A stretch of DNA of 64,000 nucleotides, taken from sequence record NC_024124.2. One strand, given 5' to 3'. The position numbers and the translations under genes are program-made. Position 1 is the first letter of the stretch. Every line of letters begins with the position of its first letter. Source of the DNA: Escherichia phage vB_EcoM_JS09. The notes beneath the pieces were generated by a model, which saw only the letters and a program-made list of their open reading frames with translations, had not been told where the DNA came from and made no database searches. Shown piece by piece: positions 2,240 through 63,898 of this stretch.

Positions 2240-2779
2240 ATGAGAACATTTTTAACTGGACCTTATCTATCCCTGATGAATGCTTTTACACACCATTCTG
2301 ATGCTAGAGTAGAAGAAATTTGTAAGAACGGTTATGCCCCACCATTTGAAGACGTACTCAAGCAGTACTGTACACTTCGTTTAGACGGCGGCAGACAATC
2401 AGGTAAATCGACCGCAGTAACTAATTTTGCTGTTAATTGGCTGTATGACGGTGGAACAGTTATTGTTCTTTCTAATACTTCAGCTTATTCTAAAATTTCT
2501 GCTGGCAACATTGAAAAAGAATTTTCTCGTTATTCTAGCGACGATATTCGATTCCGTTTATTTACTGATTCTGTCCGTAGTTTTATTGGCAATGAAGGTT
2601 CTAAATTCCGTGGATTAACGCTTTCTCGTATTCTGTATATAATTGACGAGCCTATTAAAGCTCCTGATATGGATAAGATTTACAACATACATATTAAAAC
2701 AGTCCAACACTGTTGCAAAAGCAAATATTGCATCGGCGGTATTGCTCGTCCTCAATTTTTTGTGATTGGAATGCAATGA
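2240..2779 (+). CDS. P-loop NTPase-like protein (start uncertain)
   Basis: Walker A GGRQSGKST and Walker B-like ILYIIDEP in ORF 2126-2779; ATG 2240 chosen as first start with weak SD. Confidence 0.4.
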   Translation: MRTFLTGPYLSLMNAFTHHSDARVEEICKNGYAPPFEDVLKQYCTLRLDGGRQSGKSTAVTNFAVNWLYDGGTVIVLSNTSAYSKISAGNIEKEFSRYSSDDIRFRLFTDSVRSFIGNEGSKFRGLTLSRILYIIDEPIKAPDMDKIYNIHIKTVQHCCKSKYCIGGIARPQFFVIGMQ

Positions 2780-3084
2780 TGACCACTATTGAAGTTTTTG
2801 AGTATTGTTATAACAGCCCAGTATGCAATAAAAGGGCTCTTGTAGAAAATTACGAGATCTACCATTTTAAACCTAAACGATATTGTTTGACTAAAGGTCC
2901 GTTCGCAGGTCAGCAGGTTCTTTGTACTGCTCCTAATGCACGGTTGATGACTAGTATTCCGCATTTCAAAATGGAATTTATTGATGGGCCGTTTAAGGGA
3001 TTAATCACTCAAAGTTTAATGGCGTTTAATTCCGTCCCATTTTTGATTAAAGAAAAAACTTGGATAAATTTATTTTCTAATTGA
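2776..3084 (+). CDS. Hypothetical protein
   Basis: ORF in frame with ATGATGA overlap to upstream stop; Cys-containing 102 aa. Confidence 0.35.
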   Translation: MMTTIEVFEYCYNSPVCNKRALVENYEIYHFKPKRYCLTKGPFAGQQVLCTAPNARLMTSIPHFKMEFIDGPFKGLITQSLMAFNSVPFLIKEKTWINLFSN

Positions 3085-3090
3085 GGTTAT

Positions 3091-3453
3091 ATGAAAGCAT
3101 ATCAAATTCTTGAAGGTGCGCATAAAGGCACTATTTATTTTGAAGACGGTACTCAGGCCCGGATTATTGTCTCTAAGACTTTTAAAGAAGACGCTATTGT
3201 AGACCCGGAAATTTTCTACGGTTTGAATGCCCGTGAAATTGAAATTGAACATCAACCTAAAGTTAAAATTGAAGGTGGTCAACACCTGAACGTTAACGTT
3301 CTGCGTCGTGAAACTCTGGAAGATGCAGTTAAGCATCCGGAAAAATATCCTCAGCTGACCATCCGTGTATCCGGTTATGCAGTTCGCTTTAACTCTCTGA
3401 CTCCAGAACAGCAGCGCGACGTTATCGCTCGTACCTTTACTGAGAGTCTATAA
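3091..3453 (+). CDS. Autonomous glycyl-radical cofactor (GrcA/YfiD-like)
   Basis: C-terminal [25 protein letters not shown] is the glycyl-radical signature of PFL/GrcA; T4 is known to encode a YfiD-like protein. Confidence 0.75.
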
Positions 3454-3677
3454 TGGCTAAATTGATTATAGAAGGGTCTGAAGATGTTTTAAAATGTTTT
3501 GCCGCCTGGTTTAGTTGCTCAGGCGAGCAATCATTCACTGAAGCATTTAGAATGGGTGATATTACCGGAAACTATCCGACAACTGATATCACTGTACGTG
3601 GATATGGTATTAATGAGCCTATCCAATTGGTCGAATATGACCTTGCCACCGATGAGGAAATTCCTTATGTCGATTGA
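3453..3677 (+). CDS. Hypothetical protein
   Basis: 74-aa ORF, TAATG-type coupling to upstream gene. Confidence 0.4.
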   Translation: MAKLIIEGSEDVLKCFAAWFSCSGEQSFTEAFRMGDITGNYPTTDITVRGYGINEPIQLVEYDLATDEEIPYVD

Positions 3678-35730: not shown

Positions 35731-36366
35731 ATGAAAACTACTCCTATTACTATCGCTATTGACGCAATCATAAAACAAGCTTCTTCTTTGGCCGCTATGG
35801 CCAAAGTAATTAGTCAAAACCCTGCTCGTTATAATGCTATTCTAGAAACTCTTCGACGCCCTGGACTTAGTAATTATGAAAGTCGTGTAATTATTACAGG
35901 TGTTGGTAAGAACGCTAATATCGCAACTAAAGCTTCTGAGACATTTGCTTCACTCGGTATCCCGAGTATGTACTTGAACACCGGGCATTATTCTCACGGT
36001 GATGCAGGATTCATTGCGCCTAATGATGTGTTGATTCATATTAGTCGTTCTGGTAAAACTGAAGAAATGATAGGCGTGGCTAAGCATCTTAAAACGATTC
36101 GTCCGAACGTCAAACAGATTCTGTTGCATTGTAACCCAGACATTCCACAAGAAAATGAAGCCCTTTTTGATTACTCTTTCTGTACAGGCATCGCAGTAGA
36201 GGTTGATGAGAATTCTCTGGCTCCGACCATGTCCACTACATTGTTGTTAGCGCTTATCGATACTTTTGCTATCAACCTTTCGTCTGAGCGTGGATTTACC
36301 TCTAATGACTTCCTTAAGTTCCACCCTGGCGGTGCACTAGGTGCCATGTTACGAGGCGAACAATGA
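35731..36366 (+). CDS. SIS-domain sugar-phosphate isomerase (arabinose-5-phosphate-isomerase-like, KdsD/GutQ-type)
   Basis: ITGVGKNANIATKASETFASLGIPS...HGDAGFIAPNDVLIHISRSGKTEE...LAPTMSTT...HPGGALGAM mirrors the KdsD/GutQ SIS domain; no CBS domains. Confidence 0.75.
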   Translation: MKTTPITIAIDAIIKQASSLAAMAKVISQNPARYNAILETLRRPGLSNYESRVIITGVGKNANIATKASETFASLGIPSMYLNTGHYSHGDAGFIAPNDVLIHISRSGKTEEMIGVAKHLKTIRPNVKQILLHCNPDIPQENEALFDYSFCTGIAVEVDENSLAPTMSTTLLLALIDTFAINLSSERGFTSNDFLKFHPGGALGAMLRGEQ

Positions 36367-36547: not shown

Positions 36548-38233
36548 ATGAAAAAAGCTGTTATTCTTGGTGCTGGACTGGCAACTCGTTTGTATCCAAT
36601 AACGCATCATATTCCTAAGGTGCTTGTTAACTATAAACAAGACACTATTCTGAGCAATTTGTATACAATTTATTCTGACCTTGGTGCAGATGAAATTATT
36701 GTAGTAGTTCATTCAAAATTTGCTGAAACTGTTCGAGCTTATTGTGAGCAAGAAGGGTTCAATGTGACTATTCGTACAGTTGATGAAGCATATGGTTCTG
36801 CTTATGCTCTTGCTAAATTACACAAAGATTTAGACGGCCATAATGTAATTGTTAACTGGTGTGATATTATTCCTGATTTTGGTTCATGGTCTTGGAATGT
36901 TAACGCAATCTATGTTAAGGGTGACGAATGTCGATATAATTTCGACGGTGAAAATATCACTAACGTAGGTTCAACAGGTGGTAATGTTGTAGGAATTTAT
37001 CAGTTCAAAGACTGGGAATTCTATATGGGTTCTACTGATGAGGAAATTCATGAATACTGCAAAGGACGTGATTTCGTAGAATTCCTTTACGGCAGCGCAT
37101 TCAATAAATCAGAGCTTATGAATCTAATTGATTTAGGTGATATGCCTAAACTTGAAAAAGCTCATGAAGTTCGTGAACTTAATCGTAGTTTTAATGCAGT
37201 TGAAATTGGTGAAGAAACTGTAACTAAATTCGCATTAACCGAACAGGGCCGAGCTCTTCAGAAAGATGAGATTTCATGGTATCTTAAAGTGAAATCAGAT
37301 TCAGTTCCTCAGTTAGTTTCTGTTAATGAAAATAACTTTGAAATGGAACGCATTAAAGGTAAGCCGGCATTTGAATATATTAAATCCAAATCGAGTCTTG
37401 CTCGTCCACAAATTGTTGATGCAATTTTAGACGCACTGAAATTCAGCACAGACACTTATTTTGTAAGTCCTGAAACTGTTCGTCGTGATTTCACTAAAGA
37501 ATTCTATACGAAAGTTATTGATCGTTGTGAAAGCATTCAACCATTGATTGATTCATTTGGTAAAATCACACATGTGAACTACACTAAGATTGGACGTCTG
37601 AAGCCAATGTTGAAACAAGCTTTAGAACACCTTATTCGTTATCATAACCGTTCTCAGGGACAGTACTCTGTTATTCATGGCGACCCGAACTTCAGTAATA
37701 CTATGATTACTGATAATGGTGAAGTCAAGTTTATCGACCCTCGCGGATATTTTGGCGAAACCAAGATTTATGGGCCAAAATTGTATGATGAAGCTAAAGT
37801 GCTTTATGCTGTTTCAGGTTATGATGAATTCAACGCTAATCCGACCTGGGGACAGTTTACTATTGATGAAACAACTTGTAATGTGACTATTAACATCAAT
37901 CCATTAGTTTACAAATATGGAAAGATGAGTTCGTTTAACGAGTATCATCATTTGGCTGTAGCAATTATCTGGATTGCATTAGGTGGTTATTTCAAGAATA
38001 ATCCACTTAAAGCGGTAGCCGCATATTATAAAGGTATGGAACTTCTGACTAAGCAATTACGTAACATGGGCCGTGTACTTCAGGACGGCTCTATTAGTTA
38101 TGACGTAGCAGAACCTGTAACGGCTACTCTGATTACAAAAAATCCTGGTAAATGGGTACTAACTGATAAAGAAACTGGTGTTTCCTATCGTCCAATCGGT
38201 GGCGATATCACTCATCAATGGGAACGAATCTAA
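36548..38233 (+). CDS. Bifunctional sugar-1-phosphate nucleotidyltransferase / kinase-like protein
   Basis: N-terminus MKKAVILGAGLATRLYPITHHIPKVLV is NTP-transferase-like; C-terminus VIHGDPNFSNTMITDNGEVKFIDPRGYFG resembles the APH/choline-kinase catalytic loop. Confidence 0.65.
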   Translation: MKKAVILGAGLATRLYPITHHIPKVLVNYKQDTILSNLYTIYSDLGADEIIVVVHSKFAETVRAYCEQEGFNVTIRTVDEAYGSAYALAKLHKDLDGHNVIVNWCDIIPDFGSWSWNVNAIYVKGDECRYNFDGENITNVGSTGGNVVGIYQFKDWEFYMGSTDEEIHEYCKGRDFVEFLYGSAFNKSELMNLIDLGDMPKLEKAHEVRELNRSFNAVEIGEETVTKFALTEQGRALQKDEISWYLKVKSDSVPQLVSVNENNFEMERIKGKPAFEYIKSKSSLARPQIVDAILDALKFSTDTYFVSPETVRRDFTKEFYTKVIDRCESIQPLIDSFGKITHVNYTKIGRLKPMLKQALEHLIRYHNRSQGQYSVIHGDPNFSNTMITDNGEVKFIDPRGYFGETKIYGPKLYDEAKVLYAVSGYDEFNANPTWGQFTIDETTCNVTININPLVYKYGKMSSFNEYHHLAVAIIWIALGGYFKNNPLKAVAAYYKGMELLTKQLRNMGRVLQDGSISYDVAEPVTATLITKNPGKWVLTDKETGVSYRPIGGDITHQWERI

Positions 38234-38619
38234 TGCACCGTGTAGAAAACATGCTTAATCTTTGTTTTGATGTCGATGATTGTATAACAGAGTGGAATAA
38301 CAATCGTGATTACGTGAACTTCAAACCAGACGTCGAAATGGTGACTGCCATTAATGCCCTGTATGATGCAGGGCATACAATAACGCTTTACACTGCTCGC
38401 GGTATGAAGTCAGTCGGTCCTGGTCGTATAGCAATTGACATTCTCCCAAGTCTGATTCAGAACTTGGCAAACATTGGATTGAAGTACCATAATTTGCTAA
38501 CACATAAACCAGTATATGATTGGATTATCGACGACAAAGCTATGCGTCCTGACGAATTCAAAGCTCTTATGAATAAAGGCGAATTCGAAACATTTAAATC
38601 ATATAAACCGAATCTATAA
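38233..38619 (+). CDS. HAD-superfamily phosphatase
   Basis: Motif I LCFDVDDCIT, motif II TLYTARG, motif III K...IIDDKA; TAATG coupling to upstream gene. Confidence 0.6.
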   Translation: MHRVENMLNLCFDVDDCITEWNNNRDYVNFKPDVEMVTAINALYDAGHTITLYTARGMKSVGPGRIAIDILPSLIQNLANIGLKYHNLLTHKPVYDWIIDDKAMRPDEFKALMNKGEFETFKSYKPNL

Positions 38620-38673: not shown

Positions 38674-39834
38674 ATGAATACCTTTAAAATCGGAACGAAT
38701 TTTGATTTAGCTCTTCTTGATAAAATCGTAGAGCTCAATAAAACTTATCCTAATAGCTTGATAAACGAAGTATACGGCTCTACAAGAGAAATGGCTTTTG
38801 TAGCAGCCAGACCTGATTTTAGGCTTCCTGACGTTGACAAAAAGATGTTAGAAGATTACGTTAAACGTTGTAACGAATTAGGTATTTGCTTTAACTATAC
38901 ACTCAACACGATAAATCCTGGTTCAAAAAGAGAACTAGTTGAGTGGAAGAAGAAAGCTATTCAGGATTATGTTCAGTATCTTTGGTCAATAGGCGTATGG
39001 CGTATTACTATCGCTAACCCTGTTGTTATGGAAATTGTTCGTGAAGTCAATAAAGACATTGAGATTGAAGTTTCAACAATTCTACATGTCGATGCTGTAA
39101 CTCAAATCAAATACTTGCATGACCAGTATAATATCAAAAAGGTCTGCTGTGGAATTCATAAGAACCGTTCAGTTTCTTTCCTGAAGCGTGCAGCAGAGTT
39201 TTGCAATAAGAACAATATAATATTTGAAGTTCTTGTAAATGAGTTCTGTTCTAATGCTGGTAAAGGGTATACAACACATTGTAGCTATCGTGACTCTTGC
39301 TATATTTTCCATAGTACTGATGTTACAGCTGATGATGCTAAATCCTTAAACGGATATCCTATGCAGCACTGTATTAAAGCTCGTGATACAGACCCATTTA
39401 ACTGGTTGAGAACTCGTTTTGTTCGCCCCCAAGATTTGAAACTTTATAATGATATTGGTATCACTCAATTTAAAGTTTCGGGACGTACAGGTAGCACCGA
39501 CTACATTTTGAAAGTTCTTGAAGCTTATGCTTCTGAAAAGTTTGAAGGTAATTTGTTGGAATTGTGGAAGCCTTTAGAGACCATTTTCACTCTTGAAAAT
39601 GAGACAGAGTTTTCACATACAGTAAATATTGAAACCTCTTTGTTAGATGGCTTTTTAGAAAAAAGGTGGTTCAGACATCCAGATTTCGATTGTGCTAATG
39701 AAATCTGCGGGACGACGTGTACATATTGTGAAAGATATTATAAACGTCAATTATCTAAAAACGGGTTAGCAGAAAACTCTATATCTATTATTGATATAAC
39801 TAACTCTGATGACGCTTTGAGGTACCCGGAATGA
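38674..39834 (+). CDS. Peptidase-U32-family protein (UbiU/RlhA/TrhP-like putative Fe-S enzyme)
   Basis: N-terminus IGTNFDLALLDKIV...EVYGSTREMAFVAARPDF, NPVVMEIVREVNKDIEIEVST and Cys cluster EVLVNEFCSNAGKGYTTHCSYRDSCY parallel U32 hallmarks. Confidence 0.6.
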   Translation: MNTFKIGTNFDLALLDKIVELNKTYPNSLINEVYGSTREMAFVAARPDFRLPDVDKKMLEDYVKRCNELGICFNYTLNTINPGSKRELVEWKKKAIQDYVQYLWSIGVWRITIANPVVMEIVREVNKDIEIEVSTILHVDAVTQIKYLHDQYNIKKVCCGIHKNRSVSFLKRAAEFCNKNNIIFEVLVNEFCSNAGKGYTTHCSYRDSCYIFHSTDVTADDAKSLNGYPMQHCIKARDTDPFNWLRTRFVRPQDLKLYNDIGITQFKVSGRTGSTDYILKVLEAYASEKFEGNLLELWKPLETIFTLENETEFSHTVNIETSLLDGFLEKRWFRHPDFDCANEICGTTCTYCERYYKRQLSKNGLAENSISIIDITNSDDALRYPE

Positions 39835-40113: not shown

Positions 40114-40830
40114 ATGGGAAAACATAACACAATGAAATATATCAAAGCCGCAGATTTTCAAACCGCATTTAAAGCAGTCAATCGTGAAATTTTAGAAAAC
40201 CCGGAATTCGTAACTGATTCTCGTATTGGACGTTGTAATGAAATTGGGTCTATGACAGTAGTTGTTGACACTCCATCATCATTCAAAATGACCGACCCAC
40301 GTATTAACCGCATCTCTTATGAATATGCCGAAGACTTCTGGAAGTTTATGATTTCTGGTGGTACCAACGCAGAAGAAGCGTTTAAGGCATATCCTAATGT
40401 CGCTAAATTTATTTCTAAACCAAAATCAGATGTTTTGCCGGCGAACTTCAACACTTTCTATGGTCCTCGCATTGCGGCCCAATTACCAGCTCTTCTAAAA
40501 GAACTTAAAGAGAAGCCTAACTCCCGAAGAGTTGTGTTCCAAATTCTAGAAAGTTCTGATCAGGCTTTGCTTGATTCAGACGAAACGCTTGAATATCCAT
40601 GTACTGACTCAGTGACTTATTATATTCGTGATGGTAAGCTTTATACCCACTGTCATATGCGTTCTCAGAACTGTGCTGTTGTTATGCAGTTGGATTTTTA
40701 TCTCCAAGGAAAATTACTTCATTATATCGCTAACGAATGTGGTGTAGAAGTTGGTGATTATACTCATACCATGGTAAGTGCCCATGTGTTTGAACGTGAT
40801 TTTGATTATGTTAAAGGATTCCTTGACTAA
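40114..40830 (+). CDS. 42: Thymidylate-synthase-fold pyrimidine hydroxymethylase (dCMP hydroxymethylase-like, divergent)
   Basis: Active-site-like EYPCTD, SRRVVFQI and MRSQNCAVVMQLDF segments; occupies gene 42 position between 43 and uvsX. Confidence 0.65.
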   Translation: MGKHNTMKYIKAADFQTAFKAVNREILENPEFVTDSRIGRCNEIGSMTVVVDTPSSFKMTDPRINRISYEYAEDFWKFMISGGTNAEEAFKAYPNVAKFISKPKSDVLPANFNTFYGPRIAAQLPALLKELKEKPNSRRVVFQILESSDQALLDSDETLEYPCTDSVTYYIRDGKLYTHCHMRSQNCAVVMQLDFYLQGKLLHYIANECGVEVGDYTHTMVSAHVFERDFDYVKGFLD

Positions 40831-41729
40831 TGGCTATTTTCCGCGTACCTATTTTGAGTATGCGGTCTTATGAAACTGGACAGTATGCTATCCTTAAGGA
40901 TGGCAACTTCCAACTTCATTTGCACCGTGCTAATCCAGGTGATGTGATTACATATCCACGTAATGCATCTGATATTAAAGAATGCGAACGTCTTTTTCCG
41001 GAATTTAAGTTTGTTCCATTATGGTATAAAGATAACGCGTATAACACTCGTAAATATTTCTGGTCTGAAAATGAATTTGTGGTTGATTCATTAATTGCTT
41101 ATTATGATTGTGATTTTCTAATCACAGATATCACTGGATATGATGGCGCTTTTGACGTAGAATTCAATTTCAATATCACTGCAGACCCTAATAAACCACG
41201 TTTTTATATTGATGAATTCTTAAAAACCGACATGTTGTCTGTTAATCGTTCACTTCAAACTACTGTGTTGAATGAACGTCAAAAAGAAGTGCTGGTTAAC
41301 GCAGGTGCAGATGGTAATAAGATTATCGTAACACAGAAAGTTATACGTCCTTCCGTCATGCAGCGTCTTGTAGGTGATTTGGCTCCTATTCATCTAGATG
41401 GTATTTTTCATCCATTTCGAATTAGTGACCCATGCTATCGTTTTGAACAAGTGGTTGAATGCGCAATTCAATTAGGTCAACCGCTTTATATAACTGATCC
41501 AAATAATAGTTTCGACAGAAATAAGTATCCTGAAGAAGCGCTGATTCGAATTTTTAATCCAACTAAAACTGAGTACTATCAAATTCTTAAAGGACGTCCG
41601 AAGATTCAATATTTCGAAAATCCTGAAGAAGTATTCCATCCAGGTCTTGGTGAGTTCATCTACTTTAATGCTTTAATTTCTTCGCCGTATAATATACCTA
41701 AATACGAAGATGTCGTAATCGAGGAATAA
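40830..41729 (+). CDS. Hypothetical protein at the T4 beta-glucosyltransferase locus
   Basis: 299 aa; TAATG coupling to gene 42; no resemblance to recalled T4 beta-gt. Confidence 0.5.
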   Translation: MAIFRVPILSMRSYETGQYAILKDGNFQLHLHRANPGDVITYPRNASDIKECERLFPEFKFVPLWYKDNAYNTRKYFWSENEFVVDSLIAYYDCDFLITDITGYDGAFDVEFNFNITADPNKPRFYIDEFLKTDMLSVNRSLQTTVLNERQKEVLVNAGADGNKIIVTQKVIRPSVMQRLVGDLAPIHLDGIFHPFRISDPCYRFEQVVECAIQLGQPLYITDPNNSFDRNKYPEEALIRIFNPTKTEYYQILKGRPKIQYFENPEEVFHPGLGEFIYFNALISSPYNIPKYEDVVIEE

Positions 41730-41730
41730 A

Positions 41731-42279
41731 ATGGCTAAAATTATTTTAGTAGATGGCCCGGATAATGCCGGTAAAACAACTTTCATTAATGACATAATGG
41801 AAATTAGTGAAAGATATGTAAAGATTGATTTCCCTAAACGAACAGTTGATGGACGTTTCGATGTTAAGTCTCGAAATGAAGTTGGCTGTTTCGAAACGAT
41901 GTTGAATTATTTAGACCCTACTAAGATTTATCTGTTAGACCGTGGATATATTAGTAACTGGGTTTATGGACGTATTCGACAAGATGTGGACTCGGTTCTT
42001 GACGTTTATGAACAGGATTATGTTCGTCTTTGCCAAAACCATGATGTGTTCACAATTATTTTAACACGTAACGAAATGACTGAAAGTTTTGAAGACGACC
42101 TTATTACTTTGTCTTCATTCGGTTTTAATACAGTCATTTCATATTTTGAAGAGTTTGCAATTCATAACAAAATCCAAACGTATCAATTACTTAATCATGA
42201 CGGTGCTAACAAAGTTATAGGATTTAATGCAAGCGAACGTAATTATTTGATTACAGAAATTATCAAATGGGCTCGTTAA
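41731..42279 (+). CDS. P-loop kinase-like protein
   Basis: Walker A VDGPDNAGKTT at N-terminus, 182 aa, NMP/sugar-kinase-like size; SD gagga. Confidence 0.5.
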   Translation: MAKIILVDGPDNAGKTTFINDIMEISERYVKIDFPKRTVDGRFDVKSRNEVGCFETMLNYLDPTKIYLLDRGYISNWVYGRIRQDVDSVLDVYEQDYVRLCQNHDVFTIILTRNEMTESFEDDLITLSSFGFNTVISYFEEFAIHNKIQTYQLLNHDGANKVIGFNASERNYLITEIIKWAR

Positions 42280-57253: not shown

Positions 57254-57748
57254 ATGAATATCGATACTACGGCTACTTACATCCTGAAAGACGAAAAACA
57301 AATCAACTGGTACGGTGCTTCAGTGCGAGCTTATGAAAAGTTTTGTGAAATTTTAGGTGCCACTCAAGGTAATAGTTTCACTATTGTTAACTTCATCAAA
57401 CAAGCTGAAGGCCCTTGGTTATTCTTAGAAATTAAAAATTCATATGGTACAATTTCTACTACTGCCATCCCAAGCACCGACTTTGAACTGTTGATTGAAG
57501 AAGCACCTGTTAAAGATGGTCTCCACTTTGATATGGATATCGTTTGTATGTACGGTACTCTGATTAAGCCTATTGAGCCTACTGATTTATTGTGTAAATA
57601 TGTTTCAATTCGACGCCCATTCGATGGTCCAGTAAATGGATGGGTAACTGACCAGTGGATTGAAGATGGGGTTGAACTTCTGAACGTTGTTCATGCCGGT
57701 GATTTTAGTGTAGTTCCACGTAGTGCTGTGGTTAATATTCTAAATTAA
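57254..57748 (+). CDS. Hypothetical protein, member of tandem paralogue triad
   Basis: C-terminal VTDQWIEDGVELLNVVHAGDFSVVP shared with next two genes. Confidence 0.5.
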   Translation: MNIDTTATYILKDEKQINWYGASVRAYEKFCEILGATQGNSFTIVNFIKQAEGPWLFLEIKNSYGTISTTAIPSTDFELLIEEAPVKDGLHFDMDIVCMYGTLIKPIEPTDLLCKYVSIRRPFDGPVNGWVTDQWIEDGVELLNVVHAGDFSVVPRSAVVNILN

Positions 57749-57751
57749 TGT

Positions 57752-57780
57752 TGTACATCCAAGGATGGATGGAGTATAAT
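57752..57780 (+). promoter_or_regulatory. Repeated promoter cassette, CCAAGGATGGTTGGAGTATAAT family
   Basis: TGTACATCCAAGGATGGATGGAGTATAAT. Confidence 0.55.
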
Positions 57781-57810
57781 GAATTCAACTTAAACAAAGA
57801 GAGAAAAATT

Positions 57811-58266
57811 ATGATTACTATTGGTGAAATTAAGCGTGTATCAATTGCATCCCGGTCTAAAGCCGCAGGTCGTCTGGTTGAAGTTATCGGACTTCGCACA
57901 AATGGCATGGGACGTATTAAAGAAGTTAAAGTTCGAATCATTCCTAGTTTTGGACGTCAGGATACTCAGTACGCTTACGTAAGTCCTAAATTCCTGGAAA
58001 CTCGTGTGAGCGCTCCATCTGCTTCTACTGAACCTAATGTACAGTTCAAATGGGCCTTGTGTAAAGGTGTTGAATTCCAGACTGATAAAGAATTTGACTT
58101 CATCGATGAATACGGTTATCCAAGCAAAACTGATACCATGTGTGGCTTCATTAGTGACCAATGGGTCGAAGATGGTGAAAAGTTATACAATATCGTATTC
58201 TTAGGTGACTTCCGAGTTGTTAAAGAATCTGAAATCACTCGCTATGTGTCTCCTCGTAAAGCTTAA
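57811..58266 (+). CDS. Hypothetical protein, member of tandem paralogue triad
   Basis: ISDQWVEDGEKLYNIVFLGDFRVV; ATG 57811 inside ORF 57748-58266. Confidence 0.5.
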   Translation: MITIGEIKRVSIASRSKAAGRLVEVIGLRTNGMGRIKEVKVRIIPSFGRQDTQYAYVSPKFLETRVSAPSASTEPNVQFKWALCKGVEFQTDKEFDFIDEYGYPSKTDTMCGFISDQWVEDGEKLYNIVFLGDFRVVKESEITRYVSPRKA

Positions 58267-58275
58267 GGAATTATT

Positions 58276-58695
58276 ATGAATATTGTAAATCTCTCTACAG
58301 GTGATTACGTATATGTATCTGTTGCTTCTCGCTCTAAAGTTGCCGGGAAGTTGGTAGAAGTTCTTTCTGTGAGTGATCCGGTTTTTGGTCGTAACCAAGT
58401 TAAAGTTCGTGATGCTAATGGTAATATTGGCTACGTCTCAAGCCAGTTCATTGAGCCGGAAGAACGTGCGTTCAAATGGAAACTGTGCAGGTCTGTTTTA
58501 GTTGTAAAAGACCATGAATTTACTATTGCTGCTGCAACTGACGGGTCTCCATGGACAACGAATCAAGTTGCTGGTTTTATTTCGGACCAATGGGTTGAAG
58601 ATGGTGTTAAGCTTTATAACATCGTTTTCGCTGGACAGTTCATGGTAGTTCCTGAGTTCCAAATCAAAAAATATTGTCCAGCATCTTTTGCATAA
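58276..58695 (+). CDS. Hypothetical protein, member of tandem paralogue triad
   Basis: ISDQWVEDGVKLYNIVFAGQFMVV; N-terminal VSVASRSKVAGKLVEV shared with 57811 gene. Confidence 0.5.
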   Translation: MNIVNLSTGDYVYVSVASRSKVAGKLVEVLSVSDPVFGRNQVKVRDANGNIGYVSSQFIEPEERAFKWKLCRSVLVVKDHEFTIAAATDGSPWTTNQVAGFISDQWVEDGVKLYNIVFAGQFMVVPEFQIKKYCPASFA

Positions 58696-60158: not shown

Positions 60159-60581
60159 ATGGCTTTTAAAGGTTTTGAAGTTGGTAAGAAATATCGTATT
60201 ATCAAAGGTCAAGAAGATAATTTCTTGAGAATTCTTAATACAACTGGTAAACGTCTTAACACTACTCTGCATACAGTTTTATTATCAAGAGATTTTATTG
60301 TAGAAGAGATGATTGGTTACGGTGTTTCAATGATTGCCGCTGAAACCGATGGACCTGGGCGTACAATCATTAGTATGCAAGGTGATATTCTGCTTTATGG
60401 TGCAGAATTTAAATTCTTTGAAGAAGTTCCGGAACCAGATACAGCTGTCGATTTCAAAAAAGGCTCTATAGAATTTGTTGATGGTTCGGTGATCGTATCA
60501 GGCGATGTGGTCATTACAGTTAAAAGTGAACAAGGGCGTTTGGCTGCAATTGATGCACTTCAGAAAATTAAATTTAAATAA
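60159..60581 (+). CDS. Hypothetical protein
   Basis: 140 aa; terminator hairpin downstream. Confidence 0.5.
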   Translation: MAFKGFEVGKKYRIIKGQEDNFLRILNTTGKRLNTTLHTVLLSRDFIVEEMIGYGVSMIAAETDGPGRTIISMQGDILLYGAEFKFFEEVPEPDTAVDFKKGSIEFVDGSVIVSGDVVITVKSEQGRLAAIDALQKIKFK

Positions 60582-60598
60582 GGGCTTCGGCCCTTTTT
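60581..60598 (+). terminator. Rho-independent terminator upstream of gene 39
   Basis: GGGC-TTCG-GCCC followed by TTTTT. Confidence 0.6.
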
Positions 60599-60644: not shown

Positions 60645-62462
60645 ATGATTAAAAATGAAATTAAGGTATTGTCAGATGTAGAACATATTAAGAAACGTAG
60701 TGGCATGTATATTGGTTCTTCGGCCAAAGAAGCCCACGAGCGTTTTTTGTTTGGTAAATATCAACAAGTTGAATATGTTCCTGGTCTGGTTAAATTAATC
60801 GATGAGATTATTGACAACTCGGTTGATGAAGCTATTCGTACATCATTTAAGTTTGCAAATAAAATCGATGTGCAAATTAAAAATAATCAAGTTTCGGTGG
60901 AAGATAACGGACGTGGTATTCCTCAAGGTTTAGTTACCGACCAAACAGGTGAACAAATTCCTGGGCCTGTAGCGGCCTGGACTATTCCAAAGGCTGGTGG
61001 TAACTTTGGTGATGACTCTGAACGCAAGACTGGCGGTATGAACGGCGTCGGGAGTAGTTTAACTAATATCTTCTCTACGTTGTTTACAGGCATAACGTCA
61101 GATGGCGAAAATGAAATCACTGTTAACTGTTCAAACGGAATGGAAAACAAATCGTGGTCTTCTAAGAAATCTAAAGGTAAAGGCACTAAAGTAATCTTCA
61201 CTCCTGATTTCTCTTCATTTGAAGAGCATAATTTATCTCAAATTTATTTAGATATTACTTTAGACCGACTTCAAACATTGGCAGTCGTTTATCCTGATAT
61301 CAAGTTCACATTTAATGGTAAAAAGGTTGATGGTAATTTTAAACGATTTGCTAAACAATTTGGCGAAGATAGCATCATTCAAGAAAATGATAAAGTCTCT
61401 ATAGCATTCACAACATCACCGGACGGCTTCCGTCATTTAACTTATGTGAATAACATCCATACTAAAAATGGTGGTCATCATGTTGAATGTGTAATGGATG
61501 ATATCTGCGAACATCTTTTGCCGGGTATTAAAAAGAAATATAAGGGTATTGAAGTCACTAAAGCTCGTGTTAAAGAATGTCTCACAATGTTGATGTTTAT
61601 TAGAGACATGAGCAACATGCGTTTTGATTCTCAGACTAAAGAACGTTTAACGTCAACGTATGGCGATATTCGTAATCATATCCAATTAGATGCTAAGAAA
61701 ATTGCTCAGGCACTTCTTAAAAACGAAGCCTTGATTATGCCTATTGTTGAAGCAGCATTAGCTCGTAAATTGGCAGCAGAAAAGGCTGCAGAAACTAAAG
61801 CAGCTAAAAAGGCAACTAAAGCTAAGGTTCATAAGCATATTAAAGCTAACCAATGTGGTAAAGATGCAGATACGACATTGTTTTTAACAGAAGGTGATTC
61901 GGCAATTGGTTATCTCATTGATGTTCGTGACCGTGAACTACACGGTGGATTCCCATTACGTGGTAAGGTGATGAATAGCTGGGGTATGTCATATGCCGAT
62001 ATGATGAAGAACAAAGAGCTCTTCGATATCTGTGCTATCACAGGTCTTATTCTTGGTGAAAAGGCAGAGAATACGAACTATCGTAATATTGCAATTATGA
62101 CCGATGCCGATCATGACGGTCTTGGAAGTATCTATCCGGCTTTGCTTGCTTTCTTTAGTAATTGGCCTGAATTGTTTGAACAAGGACGTATTCGCTTTGT
62201 TAAAACGCCTGTAATTATTGCACAAATTGGCAAAACTCAAAAATGGTTTTATACTGTAGCTGAGTATGAAGAAGTTAAAGATACACTGCCTAAGCATAGT
62301 ATTCGATACATCAAGGGATTAGGCTCCCTTGAAAAGTCAGAATATCGTGAAATGATTCAGAACCCTGTGTACGACGTAGTTAAACTTCCTGAAAATTGGA
62401 AAGAACTCTTTGAAATGTTGATGGGTGATGATTCAGAACTTCGTAAAGAATGGATGTCCTAA
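60645..62462 (+). CDS. 39: Type II DNA topoisomerase large (ATPase) subunit, unsplit 39/60 form
   Basis: GHKL ATPase motifs EVIDNSVDE, GRGIP, GGMNGVG; 605 aa without interruption. Confidence 0.9.
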   Translation: MIKNEIKVLSDVEHIKKRSGMYIGSSAKEAHERFLFGKYQQVEYVPGLVKLIDEIIDNSVDEAIRTSFKFANKIDVQIKNNQVSVEDNGRGIPQGLVTDQTGEQIPGPVAAWTIPKAGGNFGDDSERKTGGMNGVGSSLTNIFSTLFTGITSDGENEITVNCSNGMENKSWSSKKSKGKGTKVIFTPDFSSFEEHNLSQIYLDITLDRLQTLAVVYPDIKFTFNGKKVDGNFKRFAKQFGEDSIIQENDKVSIAFTTSPDGFRHLTYVNNIHTKNGGHHVECVMDDICEHLLPGIKKKYKGIEVTKARVKECLTMLMFIRDMSNMRFDSQTKERLTSTYGDIRNHIQLDAKKIAQALLKNEALIMPIVEAALARKLAAEKAAETKAAKKATKAKVHKHIKANQCGKDADTTLFLTEGDSAIGYLIDVRDRELHGGFPLRGKVMNSWGMSYADMMKNKELFDICAITGLILGEKAENTNYRNIAIMTDADHDGLGSIYPALLAFFSNWPELFEQGRIRFVKTPVIIAQIGKTQKWFYTVAEYEEVKDTLPKHSIRYIKGLGSLEKSEYREMIQNPVYDVVKLPENWKELFEMLMGDDSELRKEWMS

Positions 62463-62485
62463 GCTCCTTCGGGAGCTTCATTTTA
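62462..62485 (+). terminator. Terminator-like CUUCGG hairpin after gene 39
   Basis: AGCTCC-TTCG-GGAGCT then T-rich tract. Confidence 0.5.
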
Positions 62486-62504: not shown

Positions 62505-63605
62505 ATGAAAGTTATGTTTATCCCATCTCGTGCAGTCCCATTTAATCCTGACCGTGTACAAGGTGGTCTTGAAGCAGTACATTTAAATGTGTTGAAATAT
62601 CTTGTGTCCATCGGTGCTGATATTGATTATATCGGTTTTGATAATGACACATTTGGTGATTGGAAGGTTAATCATCATCCTGTTGGTCATCTGACTAAAT
62701 TCAGTCTAGGTATGAGTTATACTATGGCTCGTAAGATTGTTGAACTAGCCGGCATCCATGAATACGATTTTGTTGTTACTATGGAACCGACTAAACTAAC
62801 CGTTCAGGCAATTAAAGACGCAGGTCTCTCTAAAGTTCATAAGAATTTTATGGCAACACCATTTGAACCGGTATCTCGTGGCATTGTTCAAATTTGGGAC
62901 CAGACTATTCAAATTCATAAGAATGGTGGTAAGAGTTATGCTCCTACTAAAGCCTTCCGTGAATTTGAACGCAAATATTGTTATATGACTTCAGGTTTGA
63001 CTGACAAAATTGATTACGATTATTGGCGAGCAAATCCGTTGTTTGAAGCCGAAGATTATCCGGTTATTTGTTTGAATGAGAAACCTGAAGTTCTTCCGGC
63101 GACGGATCTGATTATTAGTGCACAACGTTATGACACTAAAATGCGTCGTACTGATGTTGCTCTTGAAGCGATTAAAGCACTAGGCGAAAATGGTGCAGGA
63201 TACTGTCCAAGCAAATGGGCGCCACCAGCTAAATATCCTGTTATTATTGATGCTCCACACAGTGAAATCATGGAACGTCTTAAAACAGCTAAAGCACTTA
63301 TTAATACGTGTCCTGACACAGGTACGGTAGAGAATAGTTCTATTGAAGCCATCTCTAAAGGTGTCCCTGTAATCCAGTTAGTTTTTAAGGATTATCCTCA
63401 TGCGACATTTGAATACGACCCAGATACTGTGCGTGTAGAAATTGATTCCTCTACTCCTAAGAAAGAAGTAGTTGCGCTTTACACAAAAGCTGTATTAGAA
63501 TTCACTGACACATACGAAGCTCGAGTTAAACGTGCTGAAGCAGTATGGAAGAAGTATAATCGAGATGCAGTTGTTGCGATGTGGGATAAAATCTTCACAG
63601 CGTAA
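62505..63605 (+). CDS. GT-B-fold glycosyltransferase-like protein (candidate DNA sugar transferase)
   Basis: N-terminal MKVMFIPS...GGLEAV and C-terminal TVENSSIEAISKGVPVIQL resemble GT-B donor-binding motifs; lies where T4 carries gene 60/mobA. Confidence 0.55.
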   Translation: MKVMFIPSRAVPFNPDRVQGGLEAVHLNVLKYLVSIGADIDYIGFDNDTFGDWKVNHHPVGHLTKFSLGMSYTMARKIVELAGIHEYDFVVTMEPTKLTVQAIKDAGLSKVHKNFMATPFEPVSRGIVQIWDQTIQIHKNGGKSYAPTKAFREFERKYCYMTSGLTDKIDYDYWRANPLFEAEDYPVICLNEKPEVLPATDLIISAQRYDTKMRRTDVALEAIKALGENGAGYCPSKWAPPAKYPVIIDAPHSEIMERLKTAKALINTCPDTGTVENSSIEAISKGVPVIQLVFKDYPHATFEYDPDTVRVEIDSSTPKKEVVALYTKAVLEFTDTYEARVKRAEAVWKKYNRDAVVAMWDKIFTA

Positions 63606-63697: not shown

Positions 63698-63898
63698 ATG
63701 AGAACATATAACGTGGACTTGGAACTTTTTGATAAAGCTGTACTCCGGGAATTCCGGCTTATCCAAAGATTTTTTGATATCGAATCAGCAGAGTCCTTTA
63801 AAGAACGCTTTAAAGAAATTCGATATAAAATACAAACCGATACAGCTACTAAAGAAGAACTTCTTGAAGTAGCAGAAATTTTTAAACGTAACTTGTGA
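63698..63898 (+). CDS. Small hypothetical protein (rIIA.1 position)
   Basis: 66 aa, SD gaga; AT-rich third codon positions. Confidence 0.45.
   Translation: MRTYNVDLELFDKAVLREFRLIQRFFDIESAESFKERFKEIRYKIQTDTATKEELLEVAEIFKRNL

Follow-up and report, generated by a model that had tools for sequence, protein, structure and literature searches.

The open reading frame at 62505..63605 of Escherichia phage vB_EcoM_JS09 (NC_024124.2; the window analysed here is a stretch of 64,000 nucleotides of this record) raises the question of which sugar its 366-aa product transfers, and onto which acceptor. The first-pass annotation had regarded it as a GT-B-like enzyme that stands in the place of T4 gene 60/mobA, acts on hmC-DNA and completes a plausible system of donor synthesis and transfer. 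The answer brings no new biology, and its value lies in a corrected annotation, namely a probable second-sugar transferase, a base that is 5-hydroxycytosine (5hoC) and not hmC, and a separate, proposed first transferase encoded at 40830..41729.

The locus and its RB69 counterpart

The gene and its flanking elements are as follows.

60645..62462, + strand: gene 39, unsplit topoisomerase II large subunit of 605 aa, the upstream flank
62461..62478, + strand: UUCG-loop hairpin AAGCTCCTTCGGGAGCTT with a T-rich tail, found by the terminator-like scan, between the gene 39 stop and the transferase ATG
62505..63605, + strand: glycosyltransferase ORF of the ORF003c/gp3 family, 366 aa, ATG start, GT-B; probable second DNA arabinosyltransferase
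63698..63898, + strand: rIIA.1 ORF, the downstream flank (PF24210, E 2.1e-30)

An unsplit gene 39 immediately upstream of the transferase, as first described, is indeed present, and its product carries the Pfam domains DNA_gyraseB, HATPase_c and Toprim and matches PHROG 543 across its full length. The adjacency to an rIIA.1-like ORF likewise holds, with the PF24210 match, whereas the proposed replacement of gene 60/mobA does not, since the transferase follows a whole, unsplit topoisomerase ORF. The T4 gene order is 39-mobA-60.1-60-rIIA.1, with mobA/60.1 splitting the T4 topoisomerase gene; the transferase gene is an insertion relative to T4, at a T4 spacer of ~55 nt, and does not replace gene 60/mobA.

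A candidate AAGG ribosome-binding site could be read ~8 nt 5′ of the transferase ATG. Terminator-like sites are commoner in the region than in shuffled sequence (6 versus 2.4±1.6), and the promoter scan of the same region gave no excess (9 matches versus 11.7±3.5 in shuffled sequence). A second GC-rich hairpin with a UUCG tetraloop, AAGGGCTTCGGCCCTT, occurs at 60580..60595, directly after the stop codon of the 60159..60581 ORF. Further upstream, two adjacent paralogous MotB-like ORFs (57748..58266 and 58276..58695) have the C-terminal motif GFISDQWVEDG.KLYNIVF.G.F.VV in common and match RB69 motB and RB69p010.

For practical purposes, the ORF is RB69 ORF003c/gp3 as carried by a further Mosigvirus isolate. 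Its product has 99.7% identity to RB69 ORF003c (gp3, NP_861693.1) across 366/366 residues, with T327I as the sole amino-acid change, and is 100% identical to the protein of E. coli O157 typing phages 3 and 6. At the DNA level, the gene is 98.4% identical to RB69ORF003c (RB69 2520-3620) between the same neighbours, gene 39 and rIIA.1, and the locus is colinear with RB69 across 7.4 kb at 96.2% identity. The position of ORF003c, which had been guessed from its numbering and was to be checked by a BLASTP-type comparison, is thus confirmed. Compared with RB69, 18 codons are changed, 17 of them synonymously and one nonsynonymously; the gene is therefore under purifying selection and is not a chance ORF. 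By megablast it was found in 162 phage records at ≥90% identity, all RB69-like (Mosigvirus), and the protein matches PHROG 8302 over residues 1-366 (E 5.9e-223), which PHROGs labels 'unknown function'. The gene is an ordinary and already known one, proposed as a transferase in 2018, with a crystal structure in 2025 and a published pathway in 2025-2026; the 2018 proposal (Thomas et al., 2018; PMC6024577) was of an ara-hmC transferase and drew solely on HHpred and Phyre.

In Shigella phage JK45 (NC_054940.1; stretch L005, 1501..3104), the full transferase gene is followed by a 411-nt ORF that duplicates the transferase 3′ end, either through partial tandem duplication or as an artefact of assembly. 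The JK45 record is filed under Tequatrovirus although its locus is Mosigvirus-like.

Fold and conserved residues

Sequence profiles give little hold on the protein. No Pfam family matches it at E≤1, the GT4 models PF00534, PF13439 and PF13692 included, and in the profile search of PDB sequences only the HY126 entry was significant, with GT4 chains marginal (E 1.3-2.9). With no Pfam match, therefore, sequence models alone cannot classify the ORF. Remote members of its family do reach Pfam Glyco_transf_4 (1.6e-7) and Glycos_transf_1 (2.3e-5).

The structural evidence is more direct. A 366-aa protein 99% identical to the window protein is represented by PDB 9IQZ (apo) and 9IR0 (with UDP according to its title), both released on 2025-07-16 and described in Foldseek as 'phage HY126 glycosyltransferase'; UDP is the probable donor nucleotide, to judge by the title of the 9IR0 entry. 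A first AlphaFold run with 6 sequences (pLDDT 60, with a poor N-domain) was replaced by one with a 13-sequence alignment, which gave pLDDT 91.7 and pTM 0.88 and a model that superposes on 9IQZ with TM 0.97 at 1.4 Å. The model has the two Rossmann-like domains and inter-domain cleft of a GT-B enzyme, and its N-terminus is a confident and usual GT-B N-domain start, with a strand at 2-6, a Gly20-Gly21 loop and a helix at 21-35. The E-x4-EA-x-S-x-G-x-PVI motif lies at residues 276-290 (ENSSIEAISKGVPVI). The GT-B hallmarks noticed at first reading, that is the C-terminal motif, the Rossmann-like N-terminus and a glycosyltransferase fold, are thereby borne out by motif, model and the 9IQZ match.

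After the HY126 entries, the structures that match best belong to retaining GT-B enzymes of the GT4 type. The bacterial enzymes PimA, BshA, MshA, WaaG, BGluT and sucrose-phosphate synthase, all retaining members of GT4, are 10-14% identical to the window protein. In the family alignment of 13 sequences, down to 19% identity, R208, R214 and E281 never vary and G20 is conserved in ≥90%, and so the features conserved in GT4-type enzymes are found, namely a Glu in the C-domain (E281, matching the second Glu of EX7E), basic residues to hold the diphosphate and a Gly-rich loop near the N-terminus. The canonical EX7E is incomplete, as the first-Glu position, eight before E281, is occupied by G273. 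The nearest acid, E276 of the E-x4-E, is offset from that position, and the most distant family members, P0015 and P0016, do not share it. The window protein thus differs from bacterial GT4 enzymes in the first Glu of this motif, as well as in its presumed acceptor, glycosylated DNA. E281 and the other conserved residues may correspond to the catalytic residues of T4 alpha-GT, following Thomas et al. (2018; PMC6024577), and to those of PimA. In the charge analysis the protein came out as mildly acidic (pI 6.3), with no hint of DNA binding. The best explanation of these features is a soluble, UDP-sugar-dependent GT-B glycosyltransferase with a GT4-like architecture.

DNA arabinosylation and the distribution of the family

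The DNA chemistry of RB69-type phages has been determined in published work. By MS/MS and NMR, RB69 DNA contains mono- and di-arabinosylated 5-hydroxycytosine (Lee et al., 2026; PMC13326640), in which arabinose is ether-linked to the 5-hydroxycytosine (PMC13326640; PMC13390438), and the disaccharide nucleoside is beta-D-Araf-(1->3)-alpha-D-Araf-O5-dC (PMC13326640). A Durham-collection paper gives a mono:di ratio of ~1:4 in Mosigvirus NP. The ThyA homolog gp48 has been experimentally confirmed to make 5hodCMP, and the same study proposed gp46:47 as the first transferase and RB69 gp3 as 'beta-arabinosyltransferase 2' (PMC13326640). The literature credits He et al. (2026; Nat Chem Biol, doi 10.1038/s41589-026-02150-z) and Mahler et al. 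(2025; Cell Host Microbe, doi 10.1016/j.chom.2025.06.005) with the Afh pathway of HY126 and with Bas46/47; the former is reported to describe HY126 crystal structures, presumably 9IQZ/9IR0, and the latter a deletion of the Bas46 transferase.

The window holds the whole RB69 arabinosylation module at 35.7-42.3 kb, colinear at 97.3%, and the sugar-nucleotide cassette that had been noted elsewhere in the window is thus present.

35731..36366, + strand: arabinose-5-phosphate isomerase (SIS; RB69 gp55); PF01380 E 6.6e-11; 99.5% identical to gp55
36548..38233, + strand: nucleotidyltransferase/kinase of 561 aa (RB69 gp53:52; AfhE-like); N-terminal NTP_transferase and weak C-terminal kinase matches; colinear with RB69
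38218..38619, + strand: HAD-like phosphatase (RB69 gp51; AfhF-like); 98.4% identical to gp51
38674..39834, + strand: peptidase-U32-like protein (RB69 gp50); PF01136 E 7.3e-11; 99.5% identical to gp50
40114..40830, + strand: 5hodCMP synthase, thymidylate-synthase (ThyA) homolog; PF00303 E 2.3e-15; 99.2% identical to RB69 gp48
40830..41729, + strand: Aat-type transferase of 299 aa (RB69 gp47+gp46 as one ORF); intact; 98-99% identical to gp47 and gp46
41731..42279, + strand: nucleotide (dNMP/thymidylate-type) kinase (RB69 gp45, annotated there as thymidylate kinase); 97.8% identical to gp45

As relayed in PMC13326640, the gp53:52-type enzyme is proposed to make UDP-D-arabinofuranose and the gp51-type enzyme to convert Araf-1,5-bisphosphate to Araf-1-P. 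The 299-aa and 561-aa proteins are each encoded here by a single intact ORF where the RB69 reference splits gp47/gp46 and gp53/gp52, which is independent support for the published reading of the RB69 splits as errors of sequencing. The U32-like protein, for which a NAR 2026 paper guesses a role as 'sugar or heterocycle reductase', occurs in both the Mosigvirus and the Thanatos clusters (TH1_065 in the latter) and was not seen in the stretch of the Acinetobacter phage DLP1 cluster that was examined.

Two of the earlier claims have to be revised on these grounds. First, the acceptor is not hmC-DNA, as the base of RB69-type DNA is arabinosylated 5-hydroxycytosine and the ThyA homolog of the window is a near-identical counterpart of the gp48 5hodCMP synthase. 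Second, the ORF at 62505 does not complete the system as its one transferase, as a separate and unrelated Aat-type transferase lies inside the cassette and is common to every arabinosylating lineage, while the ORF003c family is confined to lineages with two or three arabinoses. By BLASTP, the 62505 product gave no alignment with the Aat-type product of the window or with DLP1 077 even at E≤10, and so does not belong to the Aat family. A homolog of the Aat-type ORF at 47.5% identity is TH1_063 of Shewanella phage Thanatos (stretch L008, 4995..5897), which has been reported as a UDP-xylose pyrophosphorylase (PMC12838424), in conflict with the Aat transferase role given in PMC13326640.

A census of 50,697 phage records separated the two families. 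The Aat type was found in 347 records, comprising Mosigvirus, Dhakavirus/JS98-like, Klebsiella, Serratia, Enterobacter, Proteus, Yersinia and Acinetobacter phages and Shewanella phage Thanatos. The ORF003c family was found in 210 records at 266 places: 154 Mosigvirus-type records with one copy each; 55 Acinetobacter phage records, with two copies in all 16 of those listed, and the totals of 266 and 210 fit two in nearly all; and one Tegunavirus record of the Yersinia phage group, at <60% identity, the other Yersinia phages having only the Aat type. Thanatos, whose DNA carries a single pentose, has no ORF003c-family member. Mosigvirus-type DNA is mono- plus di-arabinosylated (PMC13326640; PMC13390438; PMC12923530), and the DNA of phage DLP3, which is related to the two-copy Acinetobacter phages, is tri-arabinosylated. 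The copy number of the ORF003c family (0, 1, 2) thus goes in step with how many arabinoses follow the first one, and the DNA of the Tegunavirus with a family member is predicted to be di-arabinosylated. The family is very small and confined to phages, with almost no presence in cellular genomes; it forms five clusters at 90% identity in a set of 5.8 billion proteins, and a profile search gave 12 representatives among 1.84 billion.

In Acinetobacter phage DLP1, the two paralogs (075/074) form a tandem within the arabinosylation cluster, where they follow immediately on the Aat and kinase genes, whereas the window gene is a single copy 21 kb from its cluster. The paralogs show full-length homology to the window protein, and the Acinetobacter pair (DLP1 075/074; DLP3 gp77/gp76 by gene order) belongs to the same family and has G20, R208, R214 and E281 in common with it. 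One-to-one orthology to either paralog was rejected, as the two are closer to each other (57.5% identity) than to the window protein (41-43%), which is therefore co-orthologous to both. Thanatos TH1_065 (stretch L008, 6462..7598), suspected of being a hidden family member as it sits where the Acinetobacter paralogs sit, was also rejected; it is the U32-like protein, and hhalign gives it a probability of 0.1% with the profile of the family.

Which sugar, and with what alternatives

Since the Aat type occurs in every arabinosylating lineage and the ORF003c family only in those with two or three arabinoses, the ORF most likely encodes the transferase of the second sugar. We propose that the ORF003c/gp3 ortholog is probably a UDP-Araf-using GT-B enzyme that adds the second (beta) arabinose on DNA, after the Aat step; acceptor and linkage are drawn from phyletic pattern, gene context and homolog biochemistry. 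Natural furanose donors are generally regarded as 1,2-cis sugars. In the phage, as the cited literature has shown, dC is replaced by 5-hydroxy-dC, supplied as 5hodCMP by the ThyA homolog, and the cassette genes at 35.7-38.6 kb are proposed there to supply UDP-D-arabinofuranose. According to the literature proposal, the Aat-type enzyme (40830..41729) would then attach the first, alpha-linked arabinose to the base O5. Acting next on the DNA, the ORF003c-type enzyme would transfer beta-Araf from UDP-Araf to O3 of the base-proximal arabinose, and most mono-arabinosyl-5hoC would be converted to di-arabinosyl-5hoC, which would further shield the DNA from host nucleases. At one further remove, as the nearest structures are all retaining enzymes, catalysis from the 1,2-cis donor UDP-beta-D-Araf would be retaining, and the Aat step would invert. 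Several points count against the second-sugar role, namely the ~21 kb between the gene and the other pathway genes, the mildly acidic charge of the protein, the Gly at the first Glu of EX7E, the dependence of the DLP3 homologs on each other and the presence of one remote family member in a virion-structural module, both described below.

Arabinosylated 5-hydroxycytosine shields Mosigvirus DNA from many restriction and CRISPR systems and also exposes it to type IV enzymes such as BrxU. In so far as they set the number of sugars per base, as proposed here, ORF003c-family enzymes are relevant to the choice and engineering of therapeutic phages.

The T2/T6 beta-alpha-glucosyltransferase is a second-sugar enzyme that makes gentiobiosyl-hmC. 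Its logic is like that proposed here, in that a second DNA glycosyltransferase extends a sugar on a modified cytosine and leaves a mixed mono/di population, although the T2/T6 enzyme works with glucose and hmC, the window enzyme presumably with arabinofuranose and 5hoC, and the two have no detectable sequence relationship. The gentiobiosyl product of T-even DNA is cited in PMC13390438. Nor does the window protein belong by sequence to the T-even hmC glucosyltransferases (alpha-GT of GT72, PDB 1Y6F/1XV5, and beta-GT of GT63), and hmC-DNA, their acceptor, is not its proposed one.

Biochemical evidence on homologs comes from DLP3, whose gp76 and gp77 are equated with the DLP1 paralogs by matching gene order only. 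Together, and with UDP-Araf as donor, these two proteins attach a third arabinose to RB69 DNA in vitro, and singly they are inactive (PMC13326640). The third sugar made by the pair is beta-1,5-linked; the Mosigvirus end product stops at the second sugar, which is beta-1,3-linked. Because the DLP3 homologs were active only as a pair, a lone enzyme of the ORF003c family may be unable to act by itself.

A more speculative extension of the second-sugar reading, which we consider doubtful though worth stating, is that the enzyme could be a retaining furanosyltransferase that reads the major-groove sugar and not a flipped-out base, and that its action could be incomplete because it selects sites by their sequence or their neighbours. 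On this view the genome of a Mosigvirus would bear a glyco-epigenetic mark with two states, laid out in a pattern and tuned against particular defence systems. In a related reading, the enzyme may need a partner protein, as the DLP3 paralogs need each other.

In a stronger form of such dependence, the ORF product would be competent only in a complex, with the Aat-type or another phage protein, or would be a non-catalytic, auxiliary partner that licenses chain extension. The behaviour of the DLP3 paralogs, inactive alone and active together (PMC13326640), speaks for this reading, and the single family member of a Mosigvirus genome would then have to pair with a different protein. The nucleotide-binding residues, however, are invariant, and the near-identical HY126 protein was by the title of 9IR0 crystallised with UDP, both of which speak for a functional transferase in its own right; adjacency, moreover, offers no partner, the neighbours being a topoisomerase and rIIA.1; we therefore consider this reading unlikely.

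Unlikelier still is that the ORF encodes the first, base-proximal transferase onto the modified cytosine, whether hmC or 5hoC, as in the model of Thomas et al. (2018) and of the first-pass annotation. Thanatos and the Dhakavirus/JS98-like, Klebsiella, Serratia and Proteus phages arabinosylate their DNA with no member of the ORF003c family, and therefore the base-proximal enzyme must be another one, common to all. The tracking of extra sugars by family copy number also argues against a base-proximal role, the hmC version of it is at odds with a base that is 5hoC, and single DLP3 glycosyltransferases were inactive on 5hoC-DNA (PMC13326640).

That the enzyme glycosylates an acceptor other than DNA, such as a host envelope or LPS precursor, a small molecule or a phage protein, is very improbable. 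In favour of such an acceptor, the closest solved relatives (PimA, BshA, WaaG, BGluT and sucrose-phosphate synthase) use lipids, small molecules or glycans, the protein is acidic, the gene stands apart from the DNA-modification cluster of JS09 and one remote family member is found among structural genes. Against it, the family is strictly limited to phage groups that also have the Aat/5hodCMP-synthase cluster and is almost absent from cellular genomes, the Acinetobacter paralogs lie physically inside the modification cluster, and the positional counterparts of these paralogs in DLP3 modify DNA in vitro (PMC13326640).

The remote member just mentioned, P0009, is 36-38% identical and was found in the virion-structural module of an unrelated phage contig (Logan SRR34261890; stretch L006, 8001..9140). 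No modification genes occur within 8 kb of it, its neighbours being a gp13-like protein, very large proteins and a terminase, and its own acceptor may be something other than DNA.
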